From sequence record OX457022: a DNA stretch of 44,532 nt. One strand, given 5' to 3'. This stretch comes from Escherichia phage vB_EcoP-CC1. The notes beneath the pieces were generated by a model, which was not told the origin of the DNA, ran no database searches, and saw only the letters and a program-made list of their open reading frames with translations. Below, in pieces: positions 18,601 through 41,842 of this stretch (position 1 is the stretch's first letter; the number at the start of each line of letters is the position of its first letter). The translations under genes and the position numbers were made by a program.

Positions 18601-19425
18601 AAGAGATTAAAGCAGCACTTGATGGGTGAGAGACAATTACCTAAAGCAGACCTTGAAGAAGTAGGCCTAAGTGAAGATGTCATGAAAAGACTTAAGCGTC
18701 ACTTTGATGACAACCCTCTGTACGCTGAGTACAATGGAGAAAAAGTTCGTATGCTGAACTTTGATGCTATGGAGCCAGACCTGAGAGAGACAGTGGGTGT
18801 TGCTGTGCGAAGAATGTCAGGCCGTCTTATTCAACGTAACTTCATTGGCGATGAAGGTATCTGGATGAATAAATGGTGGGGTAAGGCATTAACGCAGTTT
18901 AAGTCATTCTCTATTGTCTCTATTGAGAAACAGCTAATCCATGATTTACGAGGTGATAAGATTCAGGCTGCACAGATACTTGCATGGTCTACTTTACTAG
19001 GTTATGCATCTTATGCACTACAGATGCAGATGCAAGCGATTGGTAGGGAGGATAGAGACAAGTTCTTGAGGGATAAGTTTGACACACAGAACATCGCTAT
19101 GGGTGTCTTTAATAAACTTCCACAAGTTGCAGGCTTTGGTTTAGCTGGTGATGCTTTGGCAACCTTTGGCCTAATGCCAGACTCCATGATGCAAGCACCG
19201 GGACGCATGGGTTTCCGTCAGCAAGGCTTTGGGGATTTGGTAGCAGGTGCTGGTGTAATAAGTGATACAGTTAATTTGTCACAAGCACTGGTTAAGTATG
19301 CCAGTGGAGACGATGATGTCTCTACGAGGCAGTTGGTAGACAAGGTTCGTCGCCTTGTTCCTTTGGCAAATACTATTGGTGTGGGTCAGATGACTAAAGC
19401 CAGTGTAGATTTATTGGAGGATTGA
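15622..19425 (+). CDS. Internal virion protein C (gp16-position, 1267 aa)
   Basis: Called from size, synteny and the SD TAGGAGG. Confidence 0.8.
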   Translation: MVDSINQNWVAVTQRKLPPTFSQIAEAERKAEAQRANDKVFQTALESEWALYGGQRAYERHTTEFAEQEGYEVPESTKDELSKLYGYEIAQDIVKNVKSPEELQFRMSNAAADKDRADILARNGFTGFSAQIAAGILDPVGWAASLVAAPVAGAVKVGRLGRIIKTAALSGAENAALEAILAQGDYQRGVDDVLAAAGFGMIMGGTIGAATRERIASAGSRTAAERADAVVDDLDTVVKGADEFDSSAARAVREAMEYDAYMAARNYEPLRAREVDADMAILSHTDNLKANASVRMSASEKGQLKKQIRQLEAEAATLKGKKIDTVAEAAAAKGAPKSAADRLDLDVQKKALARRFDEPLADLQARLDELNAKLSRVNNVGKAKEELKRFSSLSREEQIKELGLDAPVRKVEMTRAVRDAIDAIRAERKKTPTEIHAEQVAEDAIKQRADDSVGAKRVEGSEIAGEQFDLSKNMEELMDDLAREAYQSEVRPINLKGLGSVSSVILNSENPVFRGLGLRLLENAQGGAYQGKTASILSDVYGNLIRHAERNRYNDGFSQFIKDNNLRAVDYLNPATTRDFNNQIYTAIVRGIPEDTPRGVKLAAEGIADKLKKALEIRKQAGERGFEDVQSAKDYIPVIYDGIKITEAVNKLGSSEAVIHLLSKGYQTGKYKLGKKAADALAKVQYIRASDSTLSSRVAFDRVVSQQQQAQLIEDLKKAGVPDHIIDNFIEGTELAEMAESVSNRAKASMGINTQAEYGGLKVQDLLNTNVGELAENYGKEAAGGAALAAMGFPTRQSVLNAIDAAERAGRNMAGSNAKAIKQLRAEAEMLRDAVKLIYGNTIDADPNSGIVRGTRRVREITGLLRLGQMGFAQIPELARAISKMGLGTVLKSIPATKFLRSRAARKGGTAQGELLEPELREMEELLGYIGEDNWLTGWNVRHDEFGETADNLGKLSAIIDNGLAMGSRINTILSGFKAVQGGSEKIVARSINKRLKQHLMGERQLPKADLEEVGLSEDVMKRLKRHFDDNPLYAEYNGEKVRMLNFDAMEPDLRETVGVAVRRMSGRLIQRNFIGDEGIWMNKWWGKALTQFKSFSIVSIEKQLIHDLRGDKIQAAQILAWSTLLGYASYALQMQMQAIGREDRDKFLRDKFDTQNIAMGVFNKLPQVAGFGLAGDALATFGLMPDSMMQAPGRMGFRQQGFGDLVAGAGVISDTVNLSQALVKYASGDDDVSTRQLVDKVRRLVPLANTIGVGQMTKASVDLLED

Positions 19426-22400
19426 TGAGTTATACATATACAGACCATGTAGCTAATGGCTCACAGGTTACATTCCCTTTTCGTTTTGCAGGCAGAGATA
19501 AGGCATACATTAGTGCGACAGATGTCCAAGTGGGTTTTGTAGAAGCAGGCACTTGGCTGCCAGCAACAGGTTGGACGCTAAGTGGCACCAATCAGATCAC
19601 TTTCTTAACCCCACCGACAGAAGGTAAACAAATACGAATCAGACGTATTGTAGATAAAATAAACCCATATGCTTACTTCGAGCGGGGTAATGTTTTAGAT
19701 ATTAACTCTTTAAATAACTCATTCATTAAGAACCTGCAAGTCAGTCAAGAAATCCTTGATGGCTTCTTCCCAGAAGGTTTCTACTTCAAGACAGACTTAG
19801 ACATGGGTGGTCATAAGATCATAAACCTACATGAAGGTTCGGAGTCAGGTGATGCTGTAAATTATGATCAGTTTAAAGAGTTATCAGACCGCGTTAATGA
19901 GATTGAGTCAGATTTAACAGGTTTATCTCACAGAACAGTACCTATGTATTATATTGCAACTGGCGGAGAGTCACGTTGGGAGATCGGTCACTGGACTTTC
20001 GACGCTGCAATATTATTTATTAATGGTATATTCCAGAACCAAAACCTAGGAGCTTTTACCATCAGCAACAACGGTTTTAACTTTGCAGAACCATTGCAGA
20101 AGGGGGATGAAGTATATGCCCTTGTAGGAAGCCGCATTGCAGCACCCGATGAGTATGTAACAATCTCTGACTTGAAAGACCCAGATAAAGCATGGAGGCT
20201 AATTGGACGTAAGTACCCATTTGCGACAGATGGAACTTTTATGTCAAAAGTGGTACATGATGTAGACTACTCCAATATCTTCATTGGAGCATCAGGACTT
20301 AGTCAAGGCTTCTGTATTGTAGACACTCCGCAAGGTGCTCGCATGTTCTTCCATCAACCTATCCCAAGCACTAATAAGGTTCGTTTCGTTGAAACAACCT
20401 TTAACCCTGAAGGGGATAATGAAAATCCTTCTGTTATTTCATTCAGCCAGGAACTGGATGATATTGGACACCAGACTGTGTGTGGTGTATATGAGGCGGG
20501 GGGTGTGCGTTTGTACACCTTGAGTGCAGATGAAAAATCTTATTATATCATAGATTGGTTAGGTAATAATACGTCTAATGCACATATGCGTAAGGTGCAG
20601 ATCCCTACGGAGGGTATCTACTCTAAGGACTTATTTGTCTCAGTGGGCATGTCAGAAGATACTAAAACGCTGGTATTCCATGCAACCACCAATACTCAGG
20701 CTTTTGGTAACAAGGATGATGCGAGAGCTATTTACCTCTTCGATAGAAAAACATTGGATTCAACCTCAACTAGAGGTCTTAAGCGTAGATTCGAAGTAGG
20801 AGCACCTGCTGCACCAGATATGGTCTTCCAAGGGGTTGCTTGTGATGACCGCTTCTTGTATATATATCAGGGATATAATGGTGTCCTGCTGTCTCACAAG
20901 ATCTCCGTCTTCACCCTCTCAGGGGAGCATGTACGGGATATTCCCGTTGATAGTGTGCGTGTAAAATATGGAGAAAGGATGTATGGTGACGAAACTTTAG
21001 GGTATCCTGTATTGCAGGAACCGGAAGGTTTGGCAATGTATAAAGGCAAACTTTATATGTTGTGTATGGATTTCTGGTACAAGAATGCAAGTGTAGTTAC
21101 TTTCGCTGGCAGGACTTTTGCTACAAGGAAATCTTCAGCGTTTTCTGGGTACAGTCCATTACAAGCATCATATTGGACACCTACGAACCTAATACCACCT
21201 ACGGGTGCACCAGAGTATAACAAGACTGCTACTTATTCCTGCTCTAATGCTACTAAGCTCAGTAAAGCTATTGTTAGCTTAGAAATAGATGATGGCACAG
21301 GCTTCCCTGCAAGTGTTGGGTGTTCTTTGCCAGAGAGTAGCGCCAGTGTATACCTAAACAACCGAGCGATGAATATGGCTATTGGCCCGAATGAAAACTT
21401 CCAGTTTGGGGTATTTCACCAGAACCTACAGTCATACAAAAACCTGTTACAGCTCAATAGAGAGAACCCAAATACGGATGGATCAGCGGCTGTGTGGAGG
21501 TTGTTCGGAGGTGCGTTCACAGATGACATTCAGAATGAAAGATTTGTTCAGATTAAGCATAGACTTAATCCCACACAAGATGCCATGGAGCTTCGTGCGG
21601 ATGTTGACCTTACGAGCGGTGGTGGGATTAACTTGTATTCTATGAACGACTCTGCCTCTCCTGGTCGAGTAAGGCTATATTGTACTGACGGGTATTCTTA
21701 TTGGTCAGCTCTACTGAGTCCTGTATCCCCATCTTTTCACCCTGATCAAGATAAGACTCTAAACTTAGGTACAGCAAACAACCGTTGGAACCTAGTCCAT
21801 TGTCAAGGTATCCGTATCATCTCTAACGACGAGTTACAGAAGCAAGTCTTTCTTGAAACTACCCGTAAAAAAGGTGCACTACAGATCTCCACTTCCGGCA
21901 ATCTAGGGGTGTGGGATAGTAGCGCAGGTACTTATGTTGTGGCAACCAGACCTGATGGTACAGGCTTTTCACAGGTAGAGATGAGCTTCAAAGGTGATGT
22001 TTTTCCTGAAATAAATAATACTTACAATTTAGGTCGTGAGAATAAGGCATGGGCTAATGCCTACTTTCAAAACGCACCGACTGTTGTCTGTGATGCCAGA
22101 CTTAAAACAGATGCTAGGGAGTTAACAGACGCAGAGAAATCCGCATTCTTAGAGATCTCTAAACTTCCGGCAGTTTGGCAATGGCTTGCTAAACTGGAAG
22201 TAGAAGGAGAGGATGCCCGCTTACACTCTGGATGTACTGTCCAAGCTGCTATCTCGGTTATGGAGAAACATGGCCTAGATTGGACTAAGTATAGTGCTTT
22301 CTGTTATGACAAATGGGATGCCAAGGAGGCTGTCTATGATATAGTGGATGGTAAGGCTATCCTTGTTGAAGAGGCAGTTGAGGCTGGCGACCGTTATCGT

Positions 22401-22508
22401 CTTCGTAGAGAAGAGCTGATGTGGTGGTGCATGAAGGCACAGAATGCTTGGATTGAATCTATTGAGGGGAGGCTGGCGAAATTAGAAGATAAACTCAAGG
22501 AGGTGTAA
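19425..22508 (+). CDS. Tail fibre/tailspike 1: T7 gp17-like N-terminal anchor, unassigned central domain, C-terminal S74-type intramolecular chaperone
   Basis: The N-terminus MSYTYTDHVANGSQVTFPFRF...GHKIINL...GDAVNYDQF fits the T7 tail-fibre N-terminal pattern. The C-terminus NLGRENKAWANAYFQNAPTVVCDARLKTD fits the G....W...Y.......SD.RLK junction, but with Cys in place of Ser. Confidence 0.85.
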   Translation: MSYTYTDHVANGSQVTFPFRFAGRDKAYISATDVQVGFVEAGTWLPATGWTLSGTNQITFLTPPTEGKQIRIRRIVDKINPYAYFERGNVLDINSLNNSFIKNLQVSQEILDGFFPEGFYFKTDLDMGGHKIINLHEGSESGDAVNYDQFKELSDRVNEIESDLTGLSHRTVPMYYIATGGESRWEIGHWTFDAAILFINGIFQNQNLGAFTISNNGFNFAEPLQKGDEVYALVGSRIAAPDEYVTISDLKDPDKAWRLIGRKYPFATDGTFMSKVVHDVDYSNIFIGASGLSQGFCIVDTPQGARMFFHQPIPSTNKVRFVETTFNPEGDNENPSVISFSQELDDIGHQTVCGVYEAGGVRLYTLSADEKSYYIIDWLGNNTSNAHMRKVQIPTEGIYSKDLFVSVGMSEDTKTLVFHATTNTQAFGNKDDARAIYLFDRKTLDSTSTRGLKRRFEVGAPAAPDMVFQGVACDDRFLYIYQGYNGVLLSHKISVFTLSGEHVRDIPVDSVRVKYGERMYGDETLGYPVLQEPEGLAMYKGKLYMLCMDFWYKNASVVTFAGRTFATRKSSAFSGYSPLQASYWTPTNLIPPTGAPEYNKTATYSCSNATKLSKAIVSLEIDDGTGFPASVGCSLPESSASVYLNNRAMNMAIGPNENFQFGVFHQNLQSYKNLLQLNRENPNTDGSAAVWRLFGGAFTDDIQNERFVQIKHRLNPTQDAMELRADVDLTSGGGINLYSMNDSASPGRVRLYCTDGYSYWSALLSPVSPSFHPDQDKTLNLGTANNRWNLVHCQGIRIISNDELQKQVFLETTRKKGALQISTSGNLGVWDSSAGTYVVATRPDGTGFSQVEMSFKGDVFPEINNTYNLGRENKAWANAYFQNAPTVVCDARLKTDARELTDAEKSAFLEISKLPAVWQWLAKLEVEGEDARLHSGCTVQAAISVMEKHGLDWTKYSAFCYDKWDAKEAVYDIVDGKAILVEEAVEAGDRYRLRREELMWWCMKAQNAWIESIEGRLAKLEDKLKEV

Positions 22509-25037: not shown

Positions 25038-25319
25038 ATGGCTAATGATTATAGTAATCAGCCCTTAACTGGTCGCTATGACCGTAAACAGATTACACCA
25101 ACTAGTGAAGCATTAATGCTCCCTGTTGTTACAGAGGAGTCTATTAAGAAGAAAGCCAATGTTATCAATGATGCAACCAAATCTGGTAAACAGAAAGCAG
25201 CAATGGTGTGTCGTCCTGTAGGTGGCACTCTTGAGATTGCCATTGCTACTGGTAGCAAAGAGGATGCAGATTGGTTGTCTGTTAAAATGGATGGCGTTGG
25301 TTTTATTACACCGGCTTAA
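25038..25319 (+). CDS. SGKQ-module protein A (93 aa), unknown function
   Basis: It has a strong SD and is paralogous to the next two ORFs (see findings). Confidence 0.7.
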   Translation: MANDYSNQPLTGRYDRKQITPTSEALMLPVVTEESIKKKANVINDATKSGKQKAAMVCRPVGGTLEIAIATGSKEDADWLSVKMDGVGFITPA

Positions 25320-25336
25320 TAAAAGGAGAAGATAAT

Positions 25337-25624
25337 ATGTCTAAGTATGGCGATGCAGGTACGACTACTGGTCAGGCTTTTCGTGTAAAAGCAGTACAAA
25401 CTATTGCAACTGCAATCCCTATGCCTATCGTGGCAGAAGCTGACCTTAAAAAGAAAGATCATCCAATTAATATTGAACACCTATCTGGTAAGCAGAAAGG
25501 TGCTATGGTGGTTGTAGATAAAGGAGATAATAGCCTTTATATTGCTATTGCACGTGGTTCTGCACCAACTGACCAGTGGGATGTAACTACTATGGAAGCT
25601 GTACCTGTAACACCAGGAGCTTAA
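25337..25624 (+). CDS. SGKQ-module protein B (95 aa), unknown function
   Basis: It has a strong SD and is paralogous to proteins A and C. Confidence 0.7.
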   Translation: MSKYGDAGTTTGQAFRVKAVQTIATAIPMPIVAEADLKKKDHPINIEHLSGKQKGAMVVVDKGDNSLYIAIARGSAPTDQWDVTTMEAVPVTPGA

Positions 25625-25625
25625 T

Positions 25626-26315
25626 ATGCTGGGAGTAACAGGACAACGCAATAAGAATGTAGCCACCAAAGTAGTGGCTGATTTAGCTACTGCTGCTACT
25701 GTCGAGGAATTACGAGACACACATAACTCTATTAACCGTGCTGACCTTTCTGGTAAACAAGAAGGTTCTGTTGTTCTTGTTAAGAAAGAGGATGGCAACT
25801 ATTCTATCTTTGTAGCAACAGGTAGCAAGCCTACTGATGTTTGGAAAGAGTTGTCTCCAACAATACCAGAGCAAGAGATGCCTGCTGAATATATTGATAT
25901 GGTTGATATTCAAATTCATCAAGACTCTGCAAGTAACTTACGTATGGATTCTTCTCGCACGAGCTTAATACAAACACCAATGTGGGATACTGAAGGTGAA
26001 TTGCTATTCCGTAATACCCTGAGCGCAACATGTTCTTGTACCATTCTTGCTGACGGTGCATCTGGTGTTCGTCAGGATTTTAATTTTAAGATTAATGGAA
26101 TCTTAGAGCAAGAAGAGCAGTATTATGACATTGACACTCTTATGTGCTCTATTCATTCTGCAACAACAACTAATGGTCTTACACTGTGTATGCCAGATGT
26201 TAAGAGCGCAAAGACCAATAAGATGGTAGTAAAGGTCGACACTATGCAGTCATTAACAATGAGTTTTGATCTTAACTTCCTTGTTGAATGGACGTCACCT
26301 ACGAGGTTACTATAA
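25626..26315 (+). CDS. SGKQ-module protein C (229 aa: module plus a C-terminal domain of about 140 aa), unknown function
   Basis: The SD is AGGAG. The N-terminal 75 aa are paralogous to proteins A and B. Confidence 0.7.
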   Translation: MLGVTGQRNKNVATKVVADLATAATVEELRDTHNSINRADLSGKQEGSVVLVKKEDGNYSIFVATGSKPTDVWKELSPTIPEQEMPAEYIDMVDIQIHQDSASNLRMDSSRTSLIQTPMWDTEGELLFRNTLSATCSCTILADGASGVRQDFNFKINGILEQEEQYYDIDTLMCSIHSATTTNGLTLCMPDVKSAKTNKMVVKVDTMQSLTMSFDLNFLVEWTSPTRLL

Positions 26316-26659
26316 TGCTAAACGAATACTTCAAGCGTAAAGAATTTGCTTGCCGTTGTGGGTGCGGTACATCCACTGTTGATGCTGAGTTACTACAGGT
26401 AGTAACAGATGTGCGTGAGCACTTTGGTGCTCCTGTGGTTATTACTTCTGGTCATCGTTGCGCCAAGCACAATGCTAATGTAGGTAGAGCTAAGAACTCC
26501 ATGCATCTTACTGGTAAGGCTGCTGACATTAAGGTCACTGGTGTTAGCCCAATGGAGGTACGTGCGTACCTATGCAATAAGTACACTGATAAGTATGGCA
26601 TTGGTGCTTATCCTACTTTTACACATATCGACGTTAGAGGTAACAAAGCACGATGGTAG
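26315..26659 (+). CDS. Endolysin, zinc peptidase M15 family
   Basis: The start is a TAATG overlap. FACRCGCG...SGHRCAKHN...MHLTGKAADI...FTHIDV gives the H/D/H zinc ligand pattern of Peptidase_M15. Confidence 0.85.
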   Translation: MLNEYFKRKEFACRCGCGTSTVDAELLQVVTDVREHFGAPVVITSGHRCAKHNANVGRAKNSMHLTGKAADIKVTGVSPMEVRAYLCNKYTDKYGIGAYPTFTHIDVRGNKARW

Positions 26660-27233: not shown

Positions 27234-27256
27234 ATTTACTGGACACTATAGAAGGA
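27234..27256 (+). promoter_or_regulatory. Phage RNAP promoter (ATTTACTGGACACTATAGAAGGA)
   Basis: It is a consensus match upstream of the second fibre gene. Confidence 0.85.
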
Positions 27257-27333
27257 GAGATAGTGCCGTTCATTTGAGCGGCCTATTACTAGCCAATCTT
27301 CATGGTGAGGGTTGGGAAGTAATAGGAGATAAC

Positions 27334-28857
27334 ATGGCTAAACTAACGAGAGTCACTGACTGGCTTGTTAAGGTAAAGTCCAGACTCACTGGTGCAGTAG
27401 AGCGACTGCTTGAAGATAAGTTAAATGACACGGTTAGTGTTAAGGACTTCGGTGCTAAGGGTGACGGTGTGACAGACGACACACAAGCATTTGCTGCCGC
27501 CTCAGCCGCATCGCCTCAAGGTGTTTATGTGCCTGACGGAACATATTTATTACCAGAAGATATTAATGGCAGGTTCTATGGTTCTGGTAAACGCATCAAG
27601 GCTGTAGGTGATGGTGGTATTCCTTTTACCAATGTAGCTCAGTCACATAGTAACCTAATATTAGGATATGATGCTGCAAAGGATTACACGGACGAAGGGA
27701 AAGGCAACCAATTAGTATTACTTGGCCCAAGCTCCGGTCGTAACCTTACCACTGGTACTAACTCCATTGTGGTAGGTGTTGGTGGCCTATCGGGTGATAC
27801 ATTAGAAGATGCACTAACAGATAAATCACCTTTCACTGGTACAGAGATTATTAGCATTGGTATCAATGCTCTTAAGAAAACTACCACTGGTAACAACATG
27901 ATTGGTATTGGTCGTGATGCCCTGAACGAGTGTAAGGATGGAAGATTCAACGTAGCTATAGGTATGTCTGCTTTGCAGCAGCTACACTCTGGTGAGGCTA
28001 ACGTAGCAATAGGGCGTTCAGCCGGTATGCGTACTGGCATCTTCACTAACGAAGATGGTGTACGATTAGGCTATACAAAATGTAGCGGTAATACCTTAAT
28101 AGGTAACGCGGCTGGTCGTGAATTGAAGTCAGGTAATCATAACACCGCCGTAGGCAATGGTGCTATGCGAGGTGTCAGTTCTGATATTAATCCATATACT
28201 GGCACTCTAGAGGGTAATTTTAATACAGCTATTGGTGTTGATACCTTAAACTCCTTAGCATCTGGTGAGTTGAACACCATGATTGGCGCAAGGGCTGGGC
28301 GTAAATTACCTAGTGGCTCTGGTAACATCTTCATCGGTGCGGATGCAGGTGCAGGTATTAACATTGAAAAGTCTAACACTCTCATTATTAACAACCACAC
28401 TGGCTTACCTTTCGTAGAAGGTATTATGGATGGTGCTCAGAGTGAGAATAACTACTTACGTGTTGATGGAAGTGTAGCACCTCAGATTGATAACACAAGA
28501 ACTTGTGGTCAGTCTAGCCGTAGATGGCAGACTGTCTTTTCTACCAATGGTGTTATCCAGACATCGGATGGACGATGCAAGGATGTCTACGATATTGCCA
28601 AGACGGAGTACATGGCTGGTCTAGAGTTATCTTCTAGTATGATTAAGTTCAAATGGACAGATACTAAAGAAGATAAGTATCACTTCGGTTGTCTGGCACA
28701 AGAGGTCATGCTGATTATGGAGAAACATGGGTTAAACCCTCTGGATTATTCCCTCGTTACCTATGATGCTGAAGCAGATATGTATGGTGTTAACTATGCA
28801 GAATTGTCTTGCTTCTGTATCGCAGCAATGTCCAATCATGTACTAGGCAGTGCGTAA
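27334..28857 (+). CDS. Tail fibre/tailspike 2 with a C-terminal S74-type chaperone
   Basis: AGGAG precedes the ATG at 27334. VKDFGAKGDGVTDDT is a pectate-lyase-3-type motif. About 9 repeats fit the N.(A/I/V)IG..A(L/G) pattern. The C-terminus reads RRWQTVFSTNGVIQTSDGRCKDV...YHFGCLAQEV. Confidence 0.8.
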   Translation: MAKLTRVTDWLVKVKSRLTGAVERLLEDKLNDTVSVKDFGAKGDGVTDDTQAFAAASAASPQGVYVPDGTYLLPEDINGRFYGSGKRIKAVGDGGIPFTNVAQSHSNLILGYDAAKDYTDEGKGNQLVLLGPSSGRNLTTGTNSIVVGVGGLSGDTLEDALTDKSPFTGTEIISIGINALKKTTTGNNMIGIGRDALNECKDGRFNVAIGMSALQQLHSGEANVAIGRSAGMRTGIFTNEDGVRLGYTKCSGNTLIGNAAGRELKSGNHNTAVGNGAMRGVSSDINPYTGTLEGNFNTAIGVDTLNSLASGELNTMIGARAGRKLPSGSGNIFIGADAGAGINIEKSNTLIINNHTGLPFVEGIMDGAQSENNYLRVDGSVAPQIDNTRTCGQSSRRWQTVFSTNGVIQTSDGRCKDVYDIAKTEYMAGLELSSSMIKFKWTDTKEDKYHFGCLAQEVMLIMEKHGLNPLDYSLVTYDAEADMYGVNYAELSCFCIAAMSNHVLGSA

Positions 28858-39309: not shown

Positions 39310-41842
39310 TTGGAAGAAGGAAGCAGAAGGCCGCATCCTCGTCATGGACGCAGAAGCTAAAGGTCTGCTTGATGCTATCCGCTACGGTCATCGTGAAGAT
39401 GTACACATCATTTGCTGCATGGACTTGCTCACCACTGAGGAGTTCCTCTTCTTCGACCCATATGAGATGCGTGACCCTGAAGCAAGAGAACGCCTGAAGG
39501 AGTGGGAAGGCCATCAAGATGGTGACTTGGTTGACGGTGTTAACTTCCTGAAACACTGTGAAGCTATCGTGTCACAGAACTTCCTAGGGTATGACGGCCT
39601 CCTTTTTGAGAAAGCCTTCCCTGATATCTGGAAAGGTTTTAACTATACCGAAAGGCGCGGCAAGGGCAGACTCCGTGCCGACCTGTGTCCTGTGCGAGTC
39701 ATGGACACGCTGGTGATGAGCCGCCTGTTAAACCCCGATAGACGCCTTCCTCCGCAAGCATATGCCAAAGGTATGGGTAACGTCGCCCCTCATTCAATTG
39801 AGGCGCACGGCATCCGTATAGGACGCTATAAGCCGGAGAATGAGGACTGGTCTAAACTAACTGACCACATGGTTCACCGTGTCCGCGAGGACGTGGCAAT
39901 CGGTCGTGACCTTTTCCTGTGGCTGTACAATGGAGAGTGGACGGAGCATAAACGCCGTGGCGTGAATAAACGCACTGGCCTAGGCATTGAGACAGCCTTC
40001 CACATGGAGTCTATTGTGGCGCTGGAGATGAGCCGTCAGGCAGAGCGTGGATTCCGTCTGGATATTGACAAAGCACTAGCGCGATGCGAAGAACTGGACG
40101 CTAAGATTGATGAGACAGTCGCAGCGTTCCGCCCTCACATGCCTATGCGTATCAAGTCTAAACCTTTTAAACCGGAAGAAAAGAATGAAGTATGCCAACG
40201 CGCAAATGAGTATGGAGCTAGCAACAATATACCTACTGTCCTTGACCCCTCACACTTTCTTCATGCCGAGAGACGAGGAGATCGCAAGACAGTATGGAGT
40301 GTCACTACTAAGTCTGGTGATTGGTCGGCTAGCGTCAAGAAAGACTTTCCTCACCTTAGAGGAAACCGTAATGACACGCCAAGCATCAAGTGGATTGGCG
40401 CTTACTCGCCTGTTACTTTCGAAGAGATTCCCTTGGGTAACAGGGATACAGTTAAGCAAGTGCTCTATGATTATGGATGGAAAGGTGTTGAATTTAACGA
40501 TACCGAGCAAGCGCATCTCGATGAGCATGGCGTATTACCCAAACCTTGGAGTGGAAAGATAAATGAGAAATCCCTTACTTTATGGCAAGAAAGAGCCGCA
40601 CGTGAAGGTAAAACAGTACCAGATTGGTGCTTGGGTATCGCTGCATGGTACATACTCGTATCCCGTCGTGGTCAGATCCTCAACCGTGGTGACGTTGAAG
40701 CCTTCGATCAGAAGGGGGCGTGGCCTTCGCAAGCTGGTGTACGAAAGTGTCGCGGCCTTATACCTGTAGCCTTTAACAAGGAATTAGGAATCAATGCGCA
40801 ACAATACTACGAGAGGTATGGGTATTGGCCTACGTCTGACAAGGATGACGGAGAGTGGCGTGTGCCAGCTATTGCTATTAGTATTGGCACTTCTACGTTC
40901 CGTATGCGTCATCGCAATGTGGTTAATATTCCTGCCCGTGGCTTGTATCCTTTACGTGATTTATTCATAGCAGGTAAAGGTAAGCTAATCCTTGGTTGTG
41001 ATGGTGCAGGTCTTGAACTACGTGTACTTTCTCACTTCATGAATGACCCTGAGTACCAAGATATTGTACTGCATGGCGATATACATACTCATAACCAGAT
41101 GAAGGCGGGTCTTCCTAAGCGTGATATGGCGAAGACATTTATATATGCCTTCCTTTACGGCTCTGGTATAGCTAACCTTGCAGCAGTGTGCGGTGTTACT
41201 GAGGAAGAAATGAAGGAAGTTGTGGCAAGATTCGAGATTGAATTACCATCCCTTGCACGTCTTCGTGAGAATGTTATCGCACAAGGCAACAAGTTTGGAT
41301 ACTTACAAGCACCTGACGGGCATTGGGGTCGCATCCGTATGTCTGGTGGAGAACTTAAAGAGCACACTATGCTTAATGTATTACTCCAAATGACTGGCTC
41401 TTTGTGTATGAAATACGCATTGGTCAAAGCGTTTGCAGTGATGCGCAAGGAAGGTGTGGCCTTAGATAGTATGGGACACCCTTGTGGTGTAGCTAACGTG
41501 CACGATGAAATCCAGATGGAAGTACCTGAAGAAGAGGTATTGTATCTTAACTACGACCTACCTTTCACCTTAGAGGGGTTTGAAACAGAGAAGGCTGCTG
41601 TGAAAGCAGTATTCGATGCAGAGGAGAAACGTGTTCATGTGGATTCTGAAGGACGTATGTGGTCTGCTGCAAATCTCATTAGTGTTGATGCTGCTGCTGG
41701 TGTACTTCATTGCCAGCGTCGTTATCACCGCGCAGGGCATATCATTGCCGACGCCATGACTTGGGCTGGTCAGTATCTGAAGATGCGTTGCCCGATGGCA
41801 GGCGAGTATAAGATTGGCGCAAGCTGGAAGGAAACGCACTAG
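39296..41842 (+). CDS. DNA polymerase (family A, T7 gp5-like) with a 3'-5' exonuclease domain
   Basis: The start MKTIDWKK has GAGG upstream. The exonuclease motif is LVMDAEAKGL. Polymerase motifs are LGCDGAGLELRV, RDMAKTFIYAFLYGSG and NVHDEIQMEV. Confidence 0.95.
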   Translation: MKTIDWKKEAEGRILVMDAEAKGLLDAIRYGHREDVHIICCMDLLTTEEFLFFDPYEMRDPEARERLKEWEGHQDGDLVDGVNFLKHCEAIVSQNFLGYDGLLFEKAFPDIWKGFNYTERRGKGRLRADLCPVRVMDTLVMSRLLNPDRRLPPQAYAKGMGNVAPHSIEAHGIRIGRYKPENEDWSKLTDHMVHRVREDVAIGRDLFLWLYNGEWTEHKRRGVNKRTGLGIETAFHMESIVALEMSRQAERGFRLDIDKALARCEELDAKIDETVAAFRPHMPMRIKSKPFKPEEKNEVCQRANEYGASNNIPTVLDPSHFLHAERRGDRKTVWSVTTKSGDWSASVKKDFPHLRGNRNDTPSIKWIGAYSPVTFEEIPLGNRDTVKQVLYDYGWKGVEFNDTEQAHLDEHGVLPKPWSGKINEKSLTLWQERAAREGKTVPDWCLGIAAWYILVSRRGQILNRGDVEAFDQKGAWPSQAGVRKCRGLIPVAFNKELGINAQQYYERYGYWPTSDKDDGEWRVPAIAISIGTSTFRMRHRNVVNIPARGLYPLRDLFIAGKGKLILGCDGAGLELRVLSHFMNDPEYQDIVLHGDIHTHNQMKAGLPKRDMAKTFIYAFLYGSGIANLAAVCGVTEEEMKEVVARFEIELPSLARLRENVIAQGNKFGYLQAPDGHWGRIRMSGGELKEHTMLNVLLQMTGSLCMKYALVKAFAVMRKEGVALDSMGHPCGVANVHDEIQMEVPEEEVLYLNYDLPFTLEGFETEKAAVKAVFDAEEKRVHVDSEGRMWSAANLISVDAAAGVLHCQRRYHRAGHIIADAMTWAGQYLKMRCPMAGEYKIGASWKETH

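Follow-up and report, generated by a model that had tools for sequence, protein, structure and literature searches.

Fibre 2 of Escherichia phage vB_EcoP-CC1: a capped, S74-terminated tail fibre protein with a 17-residue repeat and a predicted left-handed fold

In phage K1-5, the adaptor gp37 is a separate 320-residue protein that carries two spikes, gp46 (K5 lyase) and gp47 (endosialidase). A C-terminal Peptidase_S74 chaperone with the motif S-D-x-R-x-K is found in several phage fibres for which structures are available, namely the K1F endosialidase (3GW6), T5 pb1 (4UW8), phi29 gp12 (3GUD) and the tail fibre of Klebsiella phage Kp7 (7Y5S), and their bodies consist of a beta-propeller plus triple beta-helix, of right-handed beta-helices or of other beta folds. 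The YadA-like heads of bacterial trimeric autotransporter adhesins are single-stranded left-handed beta-helices with a 14-residue period, in trimeric surface fibres that serve attachment. Here we describe Fibre 2, a 507-residue protein encoded in Escherichia phage vB_EcoP-CC1 (record OX457022), which has features of each of these systems. Its gene lies in a window of 44,532 bases, this being the whole stretch of DNA that was analysed. An earlier note, made from the sequence alone, had proposed that the protein combines a pectate-lyase-type N-terminus with adhesin-head-like repeats and is a binding fibre rather than an enzymatic spike.

The explanation that we favour in full, and consider fairly probable, is that Fibre 2 is the second receptor-binding protein of an SP6/K1-5-like podophage and is an adhesin-type left-handed spike, likely a binder. 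Fibre 2 has in common with K1-5 gp46 and gp47 the genomic slot, the upstream region, the cap motif, the S74 end and the presence of an adaptor homologue; the body of gp46, however, is unrelated to that of Fibre 2. The chaperone with its motif is likewise common to Fibre 2 and the S74 fibres named above, but none of the bodies of those fibres matched the Fibre 2 repeat region in sequence searches of the PDB. The layout of the gene was as follows.

27334 to 28857, plus strand: Fibre 2 gene, second receptor-binding protein of 507 residues, in the slot of K1-5 gp46 (K5 lyase)
27334 to 27432, plus strand: N-terminal anchor peptide, residues 1-33, aligning with the tail fibre N-terminus of Klebsiella phage Kp7
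27433 to 27645, plus strand: pectate-lyase-type N-terminal cap (Pfam PF12708), residues 34-104, containing VKDFGAKGDGVTDDTQAF
27646 to 28389, plus strand: about 13 repeats with a 17-residue base period, residues 105-352, core N-x-h-h-G-x-x-A, predicted left-handed beta-helix
28390 to 28563, plus strand: distal tip or neck of the mature protein, residues 353-410, directly before the predicted cleavage site
28564 to 28857, plus strand: Peptidase_S74 intramolecular chaperone, residues 411-507 and the stop codon (PF13884, 22.7 bits against a cut-off of 22)

The repeat array and its predicted fold

The N-terminal motif and all nine repeat peptides quoted in the earlier note were present in this one open reading frame (ORF). 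Most of the peptides were inside the range that had been given for them (27784-28444, residues 151-371), with two quoted items outside it: the first unit, NSIVVGVGGLSG, begins at residue 143 (27760), 24 nt upstream of that range, and VKDFGAKGDGVTDDTQAF is at residues 36-53 (27439-27492). The motif N-x-[AILVMF]-[AILV]-G occurred in ten copies in Fibre 2, and 20,000 shuffles of the protein produced a maximum of five copies and a mode of zero. Successive motif spacings in the array were 19, 17, 30, 17, 27, 17 and 17 residues, which indicates a base period of 17 residues with three long insertions (near residues 149-170, 234-252 and 281-296), and not the continuum of 14-30 residue units first described. 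With the degenerate units at N107, N125, N143, E171 and N348 included, there were about 13 rungs; the initial count of about nine was too low.

In an alignment of 46 sequences, the only invariant columns were eight repeat glycines (G148, G176, G210, G257, G274, G301, G318 and G335), and the nearly invariant columns inside the array were further glycines together with N223 and N270. Among the 20 closest homologues, the best-conserved segment was the repeat region; for homologues P0003-P0019, identity was 53-64% in the repeats and 33-52% in the distal tip. The closest homologues also had a conserved polar stripe, five and six residues after the glycine (G+5/G+6) of successive rungs, formed by K181/K182, N198/E199, Q215/Q216, R233, R262/E263 and R279. 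Further residues conserved in the 20 closest homologues were D155, D159, D163, E171, D195, R194 and H218. Of the acidic and basic residues that might be catalytic, many were conserved in the 20 closest homologues and none was invariant over the 46.

Two independent AlphaFold2 monomer models, one of the full-length protein and one of residues 30-375 (mean predicted local distance difference test score, pLDDT, 79.7), both gave two short strands per repeat. The pLDDT was mostly 80-96 over residues ~170-350, and for the cap it was 81-92 at residues 31-60 and 75-87 at residues 61-100. The modelled repeats superposed on the heads of the trimeric adhesins YadA (1P9H), UspA1 (3PR7), BpaC (7O23), BoaA (3S6L) and CbpF (9U93) at 2.4-3.5 Å over 114-186 residues with 19-28% identity, and on right-handed depolymerases at 10-14 Å only. 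The model of Fibre 2 has the form of a left-handed parallel beta-roll, and the repeat region is predicted to be left-handed and nearest in fold to the adhesin heads. Because the model is a monomer prediction, our claim stops at a predicted left-handed fold. In PDB sequence searches, the repeat region had no relatives, the single hit being a chance match to dihydrodipicolinate synthase (E 0.42).

These results bear on whether Fibre 2 might be an ordinary right-handed beta-helix depolymerase of the K5 lyase or Klebsiella capsule type, with unusually narrow rungs and with the repeats as its coils. The cap gave a significant match to PF12708 (Pect-lyase_RHGA_epim) over residues 34-149 (E 1.5e-13; score 51.5 bits, cut-off 27), which bears out the pectate-lyase-type N-terminal motif of the earlier note and is the first argument for such an enzyme. 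The gene also occupies the slot of K5 lyase, close homologues conserve charged residues, and the 81%-identical homologue P0002 is named by NCBI as 'glycosyl hydrolase family 28-related'. Nevertheless, we regard a right-handed depolymerase as quite unlikely. The PF12708 match spans only positions 2-116 of the 213 in the profile, and a 17-residue turn of two strands is too small for a three-sheet right-handed rung, which needs 22 or more residues. In addition, the repeat region had no sequence match to a PDB depolymerase, and glycine and asparagine were the only residues to stand out as invariant over the 46 homologues. The profile searches, which the earlier note had named as the check that might overturn its proposal, did not carry a right-handed depolymerase assignment through the repeats, PF12708 stopping at residue 149; its view that this is not an ordinary right-handed beta-helix was supported.

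The comparison with the YadA_head/Hep_Hag family (PF05658) had a more mixed outcome. The predicted single-stranded left-handed beta-helix and the N-x-A-[IV]-G turn motif are common to Fibre 2 and YadA-like heads, and Fibre 2 is probably similar to them also in being a trimeric surface fibre for attachment. To this extent, the original reading of the repeats as YadA/Hep_Hag heads stands as a resemblance in core motif and predicted fold, but family membership does not follow: the proposed hidden Markov model (HMM) check gave no Pfam match of Fibre 2 to YadA_head/Hep_Hag at E<=10, and the period is 17 residues as opposed to 14. The 17-residue spacing was dominant in the 143 top relatives, in which 2,396 of the intervals separating 5,238 motif copies had this length, whereas YadA and two other adhesins had motif spacings of 13-14. 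Pfam searches of Fibre 2 found none of the adhesin signal peptide, neck, coiled-coil stalk or YadA_anchor beta-barrel. Unlike the trimeric autotransporter adhesins, Fibre 2 would presumably trimerise by means of a cleavable S74 chaperone, and its N-terminus is a pectate-lyase-type cap preceded by a phage anchor.

We therefore weighed the possibility that the repeats are true sequence-level members of Hep_Hag/YadA_head, acquired from or held in common with bacterial trimeric autotransporter adhesins. In its favour are the common core motif N-[ST]-[VA]-A-[IV]-G, the structure-based identity of 19-28% to adhesin heads, and weak YadA_head matches in two of the 46 homologues (best E 0.0071), although neither of these two alignment members was among the ten homologues that we scanned individually. 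Two relatives, P0114 and P0157, have the JGI label 'trimeric autotransporter adhesin'. Profile alignment with hhalign gave P 0.036 for the repeats against Yersinia pseudotuberculosis YadA and P 0.0016 against a six-sequence adhesin-head profile, but the probability in the latter case was only 16%; the head profile was shallow, and the comparison was underpowered because the YadA search for building it gave only five matches. On the other side, YadA_head was matched neither by Fibre 2 nor, in Pfam scans, by any of nine large repeat relatives, including the JGI-labelled P0157, and a PDB profile search at E<=10 returned no adhesin head. The period also differs from that of the three adhesins examined, and the partner domains of the repeat are S74, C1q and FG-GAP, never YadA_anchor or stalk. 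Based on these data, we consider sequence-level membership improbable.

Left-handed beta-helices also occur in the hexapeptide-repeat acyltransferases of the LpxA/GlmU type, with which Fibre 2 has a similarity of predicted fold only, the biological context being different. An LpxA-type acyltransferase was ruled out by the Hexapep_2 result (E 9.4; score 6.5 bits, cut-off 27) and by an identity of 7-11%.

The attachment and chaperone domains

The earlier note had overlooked two parts of Fibre 2, namely the N-terminal anchor of ~33 residues and the S74 chaperone. Residues 4-78 of Fibre 2 aligned with residues 3-89 of the Kp7 tail fibre (7Y5S), such that among the S74 fibres Kp7 has the anchor and cap in common with Fibre 2 as well as the chaperone. 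Homologues that share residues 34-507 (43-60% identity) have exchanged the first ~33 residues for other virion-attachment modules, these being P22 Head_binding, Tail_spike_N, T7 tail and Calx-beta N-termini. By analogy with the K1-5/SP6 system, we infer that anchor residues 1-33 dock on that part of Fibre 1, the partner protein described below, which resembles the gp37 adaptor. For the cap, the PDB sequence matches were to enzymes and tailspikes of the right-handed beta-helix type, at their N-terminal caps, and the NCBIfam search of Fibre 2 returned a single sub-threshold match, also to the N-terminal cap. Pfam found only PF12708 and PF13884 in Fibre 2, besides a sub-threshold End_N_terminal match.

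PDB profile E-values for the S74 domain were 5e-37 (9vvr), 6e-34 (7y5s), 3e-27 (3gud), 9e-23 (4uw8) and 5e-19 (3gw6), with 6eu4 within this range, and Foldseek matched the domain to 4uw8 and 3gud (probability 1.00) and to 3gw6. Fibre 2 has a Ser411/Lys416 dyad in the sequence TSDGRCKD, which fits the S-D-x-R-x-K motif and aligns with TSDARCK of K5 lyase. In the 46 sequences, S411, D412 and K416 were conserved in 87-93%, or 78-93% with R414 included. In work on endosialidases, the S74 domain reportedly directs the folding of the trimer, after which it cuts at the serine. Based on the motif, self-cleavage of Fibre 2 is predicted to occur between T410 and S411, and because the S74 domain cleaves at the serine, mature Fibre 2 should end at T410.

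The same region is where a further alternative has to be considered, that is, that three chains intertwine in a triple beta-helix or beta-prism of the kind seen in the endosialidase stalk, T4 gp12 and gp5C, with the monomer solenoid an artefact of modelling. S74 chaperones commonly follow triple beta-helices, and at the tip, just before the S74 domain, homologues of Fibre 2 matched positions 128-160 of End_tail_spike, where this endosialidase stalk profile ends. Confidence in the monomer model was low at residues 378-405, as would be expected if the tip were intertwined in a trimer. However, the stalk-like match was limited to ~33 residues by the cleavage site, and monomer confidence was high over most of the repeats. 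An intertwined fold for the repeat region thus appears very unlikely to us.

The genomic setting and the partner protein

The 1,584-bp stretch around the Fibre 2 gene was 100% identical to Escherichia phage vB_EcoP-CC2 (OX638290.1), which is classed in the Autographiviridae, Molineuxvirinae, Vectrevirus, and is SP6/K1-5-like. Three other coliphages had 98.4% identity to the stretch, and Raoultella phage vB_Ro_P3a had 92%; in the latter, the counterpart gene (92% identical) carries the annotation 'tail spike protein'. The Fibre 2 protein was 100% identical to CAI9889091, a hypothetical protein of vB_EcoP-CC2. Phage vB_EcoP-CC2 came from pig faeces, was isolated on E. coli ST131 strain EC958 and has a narrow host range (PMC10433417). 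The window of 44,532 bases is a circular permutation of the OX638290 record (44,531 bases), shifted by 12,007 bases. The GenBank coding sequence (CDS) at 39341-40864 of OX638290 corresponds to 27334-28857 of the window.

Three features outside the Fibre 2 coding region are relevant to its proposed expression and attachment.

27234 to 27256, plus strand: SP6-type phage RNA polymerase promoter-like sequence ATTTACTGGACACTATAGAAGGA, read from sequence
27324 to 27329, plus strand: ribosome-binding site AGGAGA, 4 nt ahead of the ATG at 27334
19425 to 22508, plus strand: Fibre 1, the partner protein, 1027 residues, with Phage_T7_tail at residues 3-152 and Peptidase_S74 at residues 890-952

The promoter-like sequence ATTTACTGGACACTATAGAAGGA matches the SP6 promoter core, which we take to be GACACTATAGAAG. 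A TTG start at 27274 was ruled out in favour of the ATG at 27334, which is preceded by a ribosome-binding site and agrees with the GenBank CDS. The synteny of the locus is that of the second tailspike of SP6/K1-5-like phages (the gp46 slot): the gene is downstream of the lysis genes, its upstream region is conserved, and an adaptor homologue is present. The upstream stretch at 27274-27347 was 93-97% conserved in K1-5-like phages ahead of gp46. Relative to K1-5, conservation at the DNA level was confined to the upstream region and the first few codons, which indicates that the body of the gene has been swapped. Since ATTTACTGGACACTATAGAAGGA sits within the stretch conserved with K1-5-like phages, the boundary of the module swap falls just inside the coding region.

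The first ~300 residues of Fibre 1 correspond to the K1-5 gp37 adaptor (44% identity over 300 residues). In contrast to K1-5, with its separate adaptor and two spikes, vB_EcoP-CC2 has only one gene in the gp46/gp47 region, and its gp37 adaptor is extended to 1027 residues. Beyond the adaptor, Fibre 1 continues for ~700 residues as a receptor-binding part, in which a 5-bladed beta-propeller receptor-binding domain was matched below threshold and which carries an S74 chaperone of its own. Within the adaptor part of Fibre 1, residues 132-164 matched YadA_stalk, again below threshold.

Between the large terminase and the endolysin were three tandem paralogous small ORFs of 93, 95 and 229 residues (25038-26315, plus strand), which have the motifs T-G, I-N, S-G-K-Q and W in common and for none of which Pfam gave a match. 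The first two correspond to K1-5 gp41 and gp42; the third has the same domain of ~85 residues and an extension of ~140 residues that is absent from K1-5. The endolysin (26288-26659, plus strand) is a Peptidase_M15_3 protein (Pfam, E 3e-32), and its ORF starts 28 nt inside the preceding 229-residue ORF (25626-26315). In GenBank the endolysin CDS is shorter, with an ATG that overlaps the stop codon of the 229-residue ORF by one base (window position 26315).

The wider repeat family and the function of Fibre 2

An exhaustive phmmer search with residues 143-349 identified 14,788 cluster representatives at E<=0.001, of which 2,562 also passed E<=1e-10. Proteins of 1,000-5,000 residues with up to 30 matched stretches were numerous among them. 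Giant metagenome proteins of 1,000-5,300 residues (P0151-P0293) had up to 30 stretches of the same 17-residue repeat at 34-40% identity, and P0151 (4257 residues) was from a Limisphaerales bacterium genome bin, such that the family extends over phages, giant viruses and giant metagenome proteins, at least one of them from a bacterial genome bin. Among the six largest relatives sampled, two had an S74 end, one had C1q and one had FG-GAP repeats, and in five of nine large relatives scanned Pfam recognised no domain. Among predicted viral structures, Foldseek gave 73 matches at E<=0.001, many with S74 domains; S74 proteins from giant viruses and uncultured phages were among them, as was a protein labelled 'Chlorovirus glycoprotein repeat'. 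A word-index homologue search with the central region alone yielded only 25 short proteins, all marine, and none of the close homologues, and phmmer was far more informative.

On these comparisons, the repeat is a very large family of its own, mostly unannotated, separate by sequence from YadA heads and, in viral fibres, typically coupled to S74. From the models, it is predicted to be the unit of which left-handed beta-helical fibres of a very large class are built, a class without a solved structure. The precomputed annotation of seven distant homologues (P0035, P0069, P0073, P0075, P0082, P0087 and P0106) lists PF26696, a family outside the Pfam set that we searched, and PF26696 may describe the 17-residue repeat. 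A Pfam rescan of P0035, P0069, P0082 and P0087 with our set, which does not include PF26696, found no family over the repeat region.

The module of residues 34-507 was found behind P22 Head_binding, Tail_spike_N, T7-tail and Calx-beta N-termini. In a P22-like E. coli prophage, one homologue of Fibre 2 takes the tailspike slot of gene 9, flanked by the antirepressor and integrase genes, and an 81%-identical homologue precedes the lysis genes in an E. marmotae prophage. In enterobacterial podophages, the repeat module is predicted to have replaced the right-handed depolymerase.

Based on these observations, we propose the following for Fibre 2. The gene would be transcribed from its own SP6-type promoter, and the S74 chaperone (residues 411-507) would put three chains in register before cutting itself off at T410/S411 by means of the Ser411/Lys416 dyad. 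Through its N-terminal ~33 residues, the mature 410-residue trimer would then be suspended from the part of Fibre 1 that resembles the gp37 adaptor. Its body would comprise the pectate-lyase-type cap (residues 34-~100), ~13 rungs of single-stranded left-handed beta-helix (residues ~105-352) and a small distal tip, with the helix being of the same kind of fold as YadA-like heads and the LpxA-type left-handed beta-helix but a separate repeat family by sequence. The trimer would serve as an adhesin-type spike that binds a host surface structure by way of the polar stripe, the long inserted loops or the tip. In this scheme the domain layout, the repeats, the synteny and the size of the family are observed, the left-handed fold is predicted, and trimerisation, cleavage, docking and non-enzymatic binding are deduced.

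We would put the chance that this binding is non-enzymatic slightly above one half. A structural or adhesive role is suggested by the conservation of only glycine and asparagine across the wide family, by the variable, shaft-like copy number of the repeat, and by adhesins being, among the relatives in fold, the nearest in sequence. There is also a precedent in T5 pb1, an S74-bearing fibre that binds polysaccharide without cutting it.

Several points weigh against this interpretation of Fibre 2 as an adhesin-type left-handed binder. The left-handed fold is drawn entirely from monomer AlphaFold2 models, and AlphaFold2 may have been steered by NSVAIG-like motifs learned from adhesin heads. The pLDDT was ~46-68 for residues 100-169, that is, for the join of cap and repeats and the first units, and the PF12708 match runs into the first repeats, to residue 149. 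With the full-length model in Foldseek, adhesin heads were not among the top 50 matches. As regards function, charged residues (D155, D159, D163, E171, K181, K182, R194, D195, E199, H218, R233, R262, E263 and R279) are conserved among close homologues, and the module is the tailspike of a P22-like prophage, a position normally held by O-antigen-cleaving enzymes. For the polar stripe, a ligand groove, a catalytic site and a trimer interface are equally conceivable.

A further possibility is that the fold is left-handed but the protein is an enzyme, namely a new polysaccharide-degrading or -modifying spike with its active site on the D195/E199/H218/E263 stripe, or between subunits as in LpxA-type trimers. 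In favour of such an enzyme are the repeats being the best-conserved segment among close homologues (53-64% in P0003-P0019) with conserved D, E, H, R and K at G+5/G+6, the tailspike position in the P22-like prophage and the depolymerase slot in K1-5-like phages. However, no charged residue was conserved in the wider family, there was no hexapeptide-transferase HMM match, and identity to LpxA-type enzymes was 7-11%. The up to 30 repeat stretches in giant proteins look more like a structural shaft, and we know of no depolymerase with a left-handed helix fold. We consider a left-handed enzyme to be unlikely, and an adhesin-type binding spike remains the interpretation that we prefer.

The Fibre 2 gene was already known from GenBank as that of a hypothetical protein, and the domains that flank the repeats are well described. 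In the literature that we searched on phage fibres with YadA-like or left-handed helices, there was no relevant precedent. In a passage of a giant-virus paper (PMC13620141), a YadA domain is said to have a role in phage tail fibres, and the reference given there for this role is the phi29 gp12 paper, whose title is on autocatalytic tail-spike assembly and not on YadA domains. What is new relative to the literature searched is a spike body formed by a left-handed helix, as modelled, of 17-residue repeats, with an adhesin-like predicted fold and belonging to a separate, very large family without a solved structure.

Receptor-binding proteins determine which bacteria a phage kills, and to our knowledge nearly all characterised podophage spikes are right-handed beta-helix enzymes. 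An adhesin-like left-handed spike, if true, would be a different solution, with other rules for engineering and host-range prediction. This is of practical interest, as vB_EcoP-CC2 was isolated to remove multidrug-resistant E. coli ST131 (PMC10433417). The repeat marks at least 14,788 protein clusters that were left unannotated by the Pfam set searched, and because it labels so many, a single structure together with a single assay of binding or activity would shed light on a very large number of fibres from viruses and bacteria. It would also bear on whether phage fibres and bacterial trimeric adhesins have a shared ancestry or have converged.

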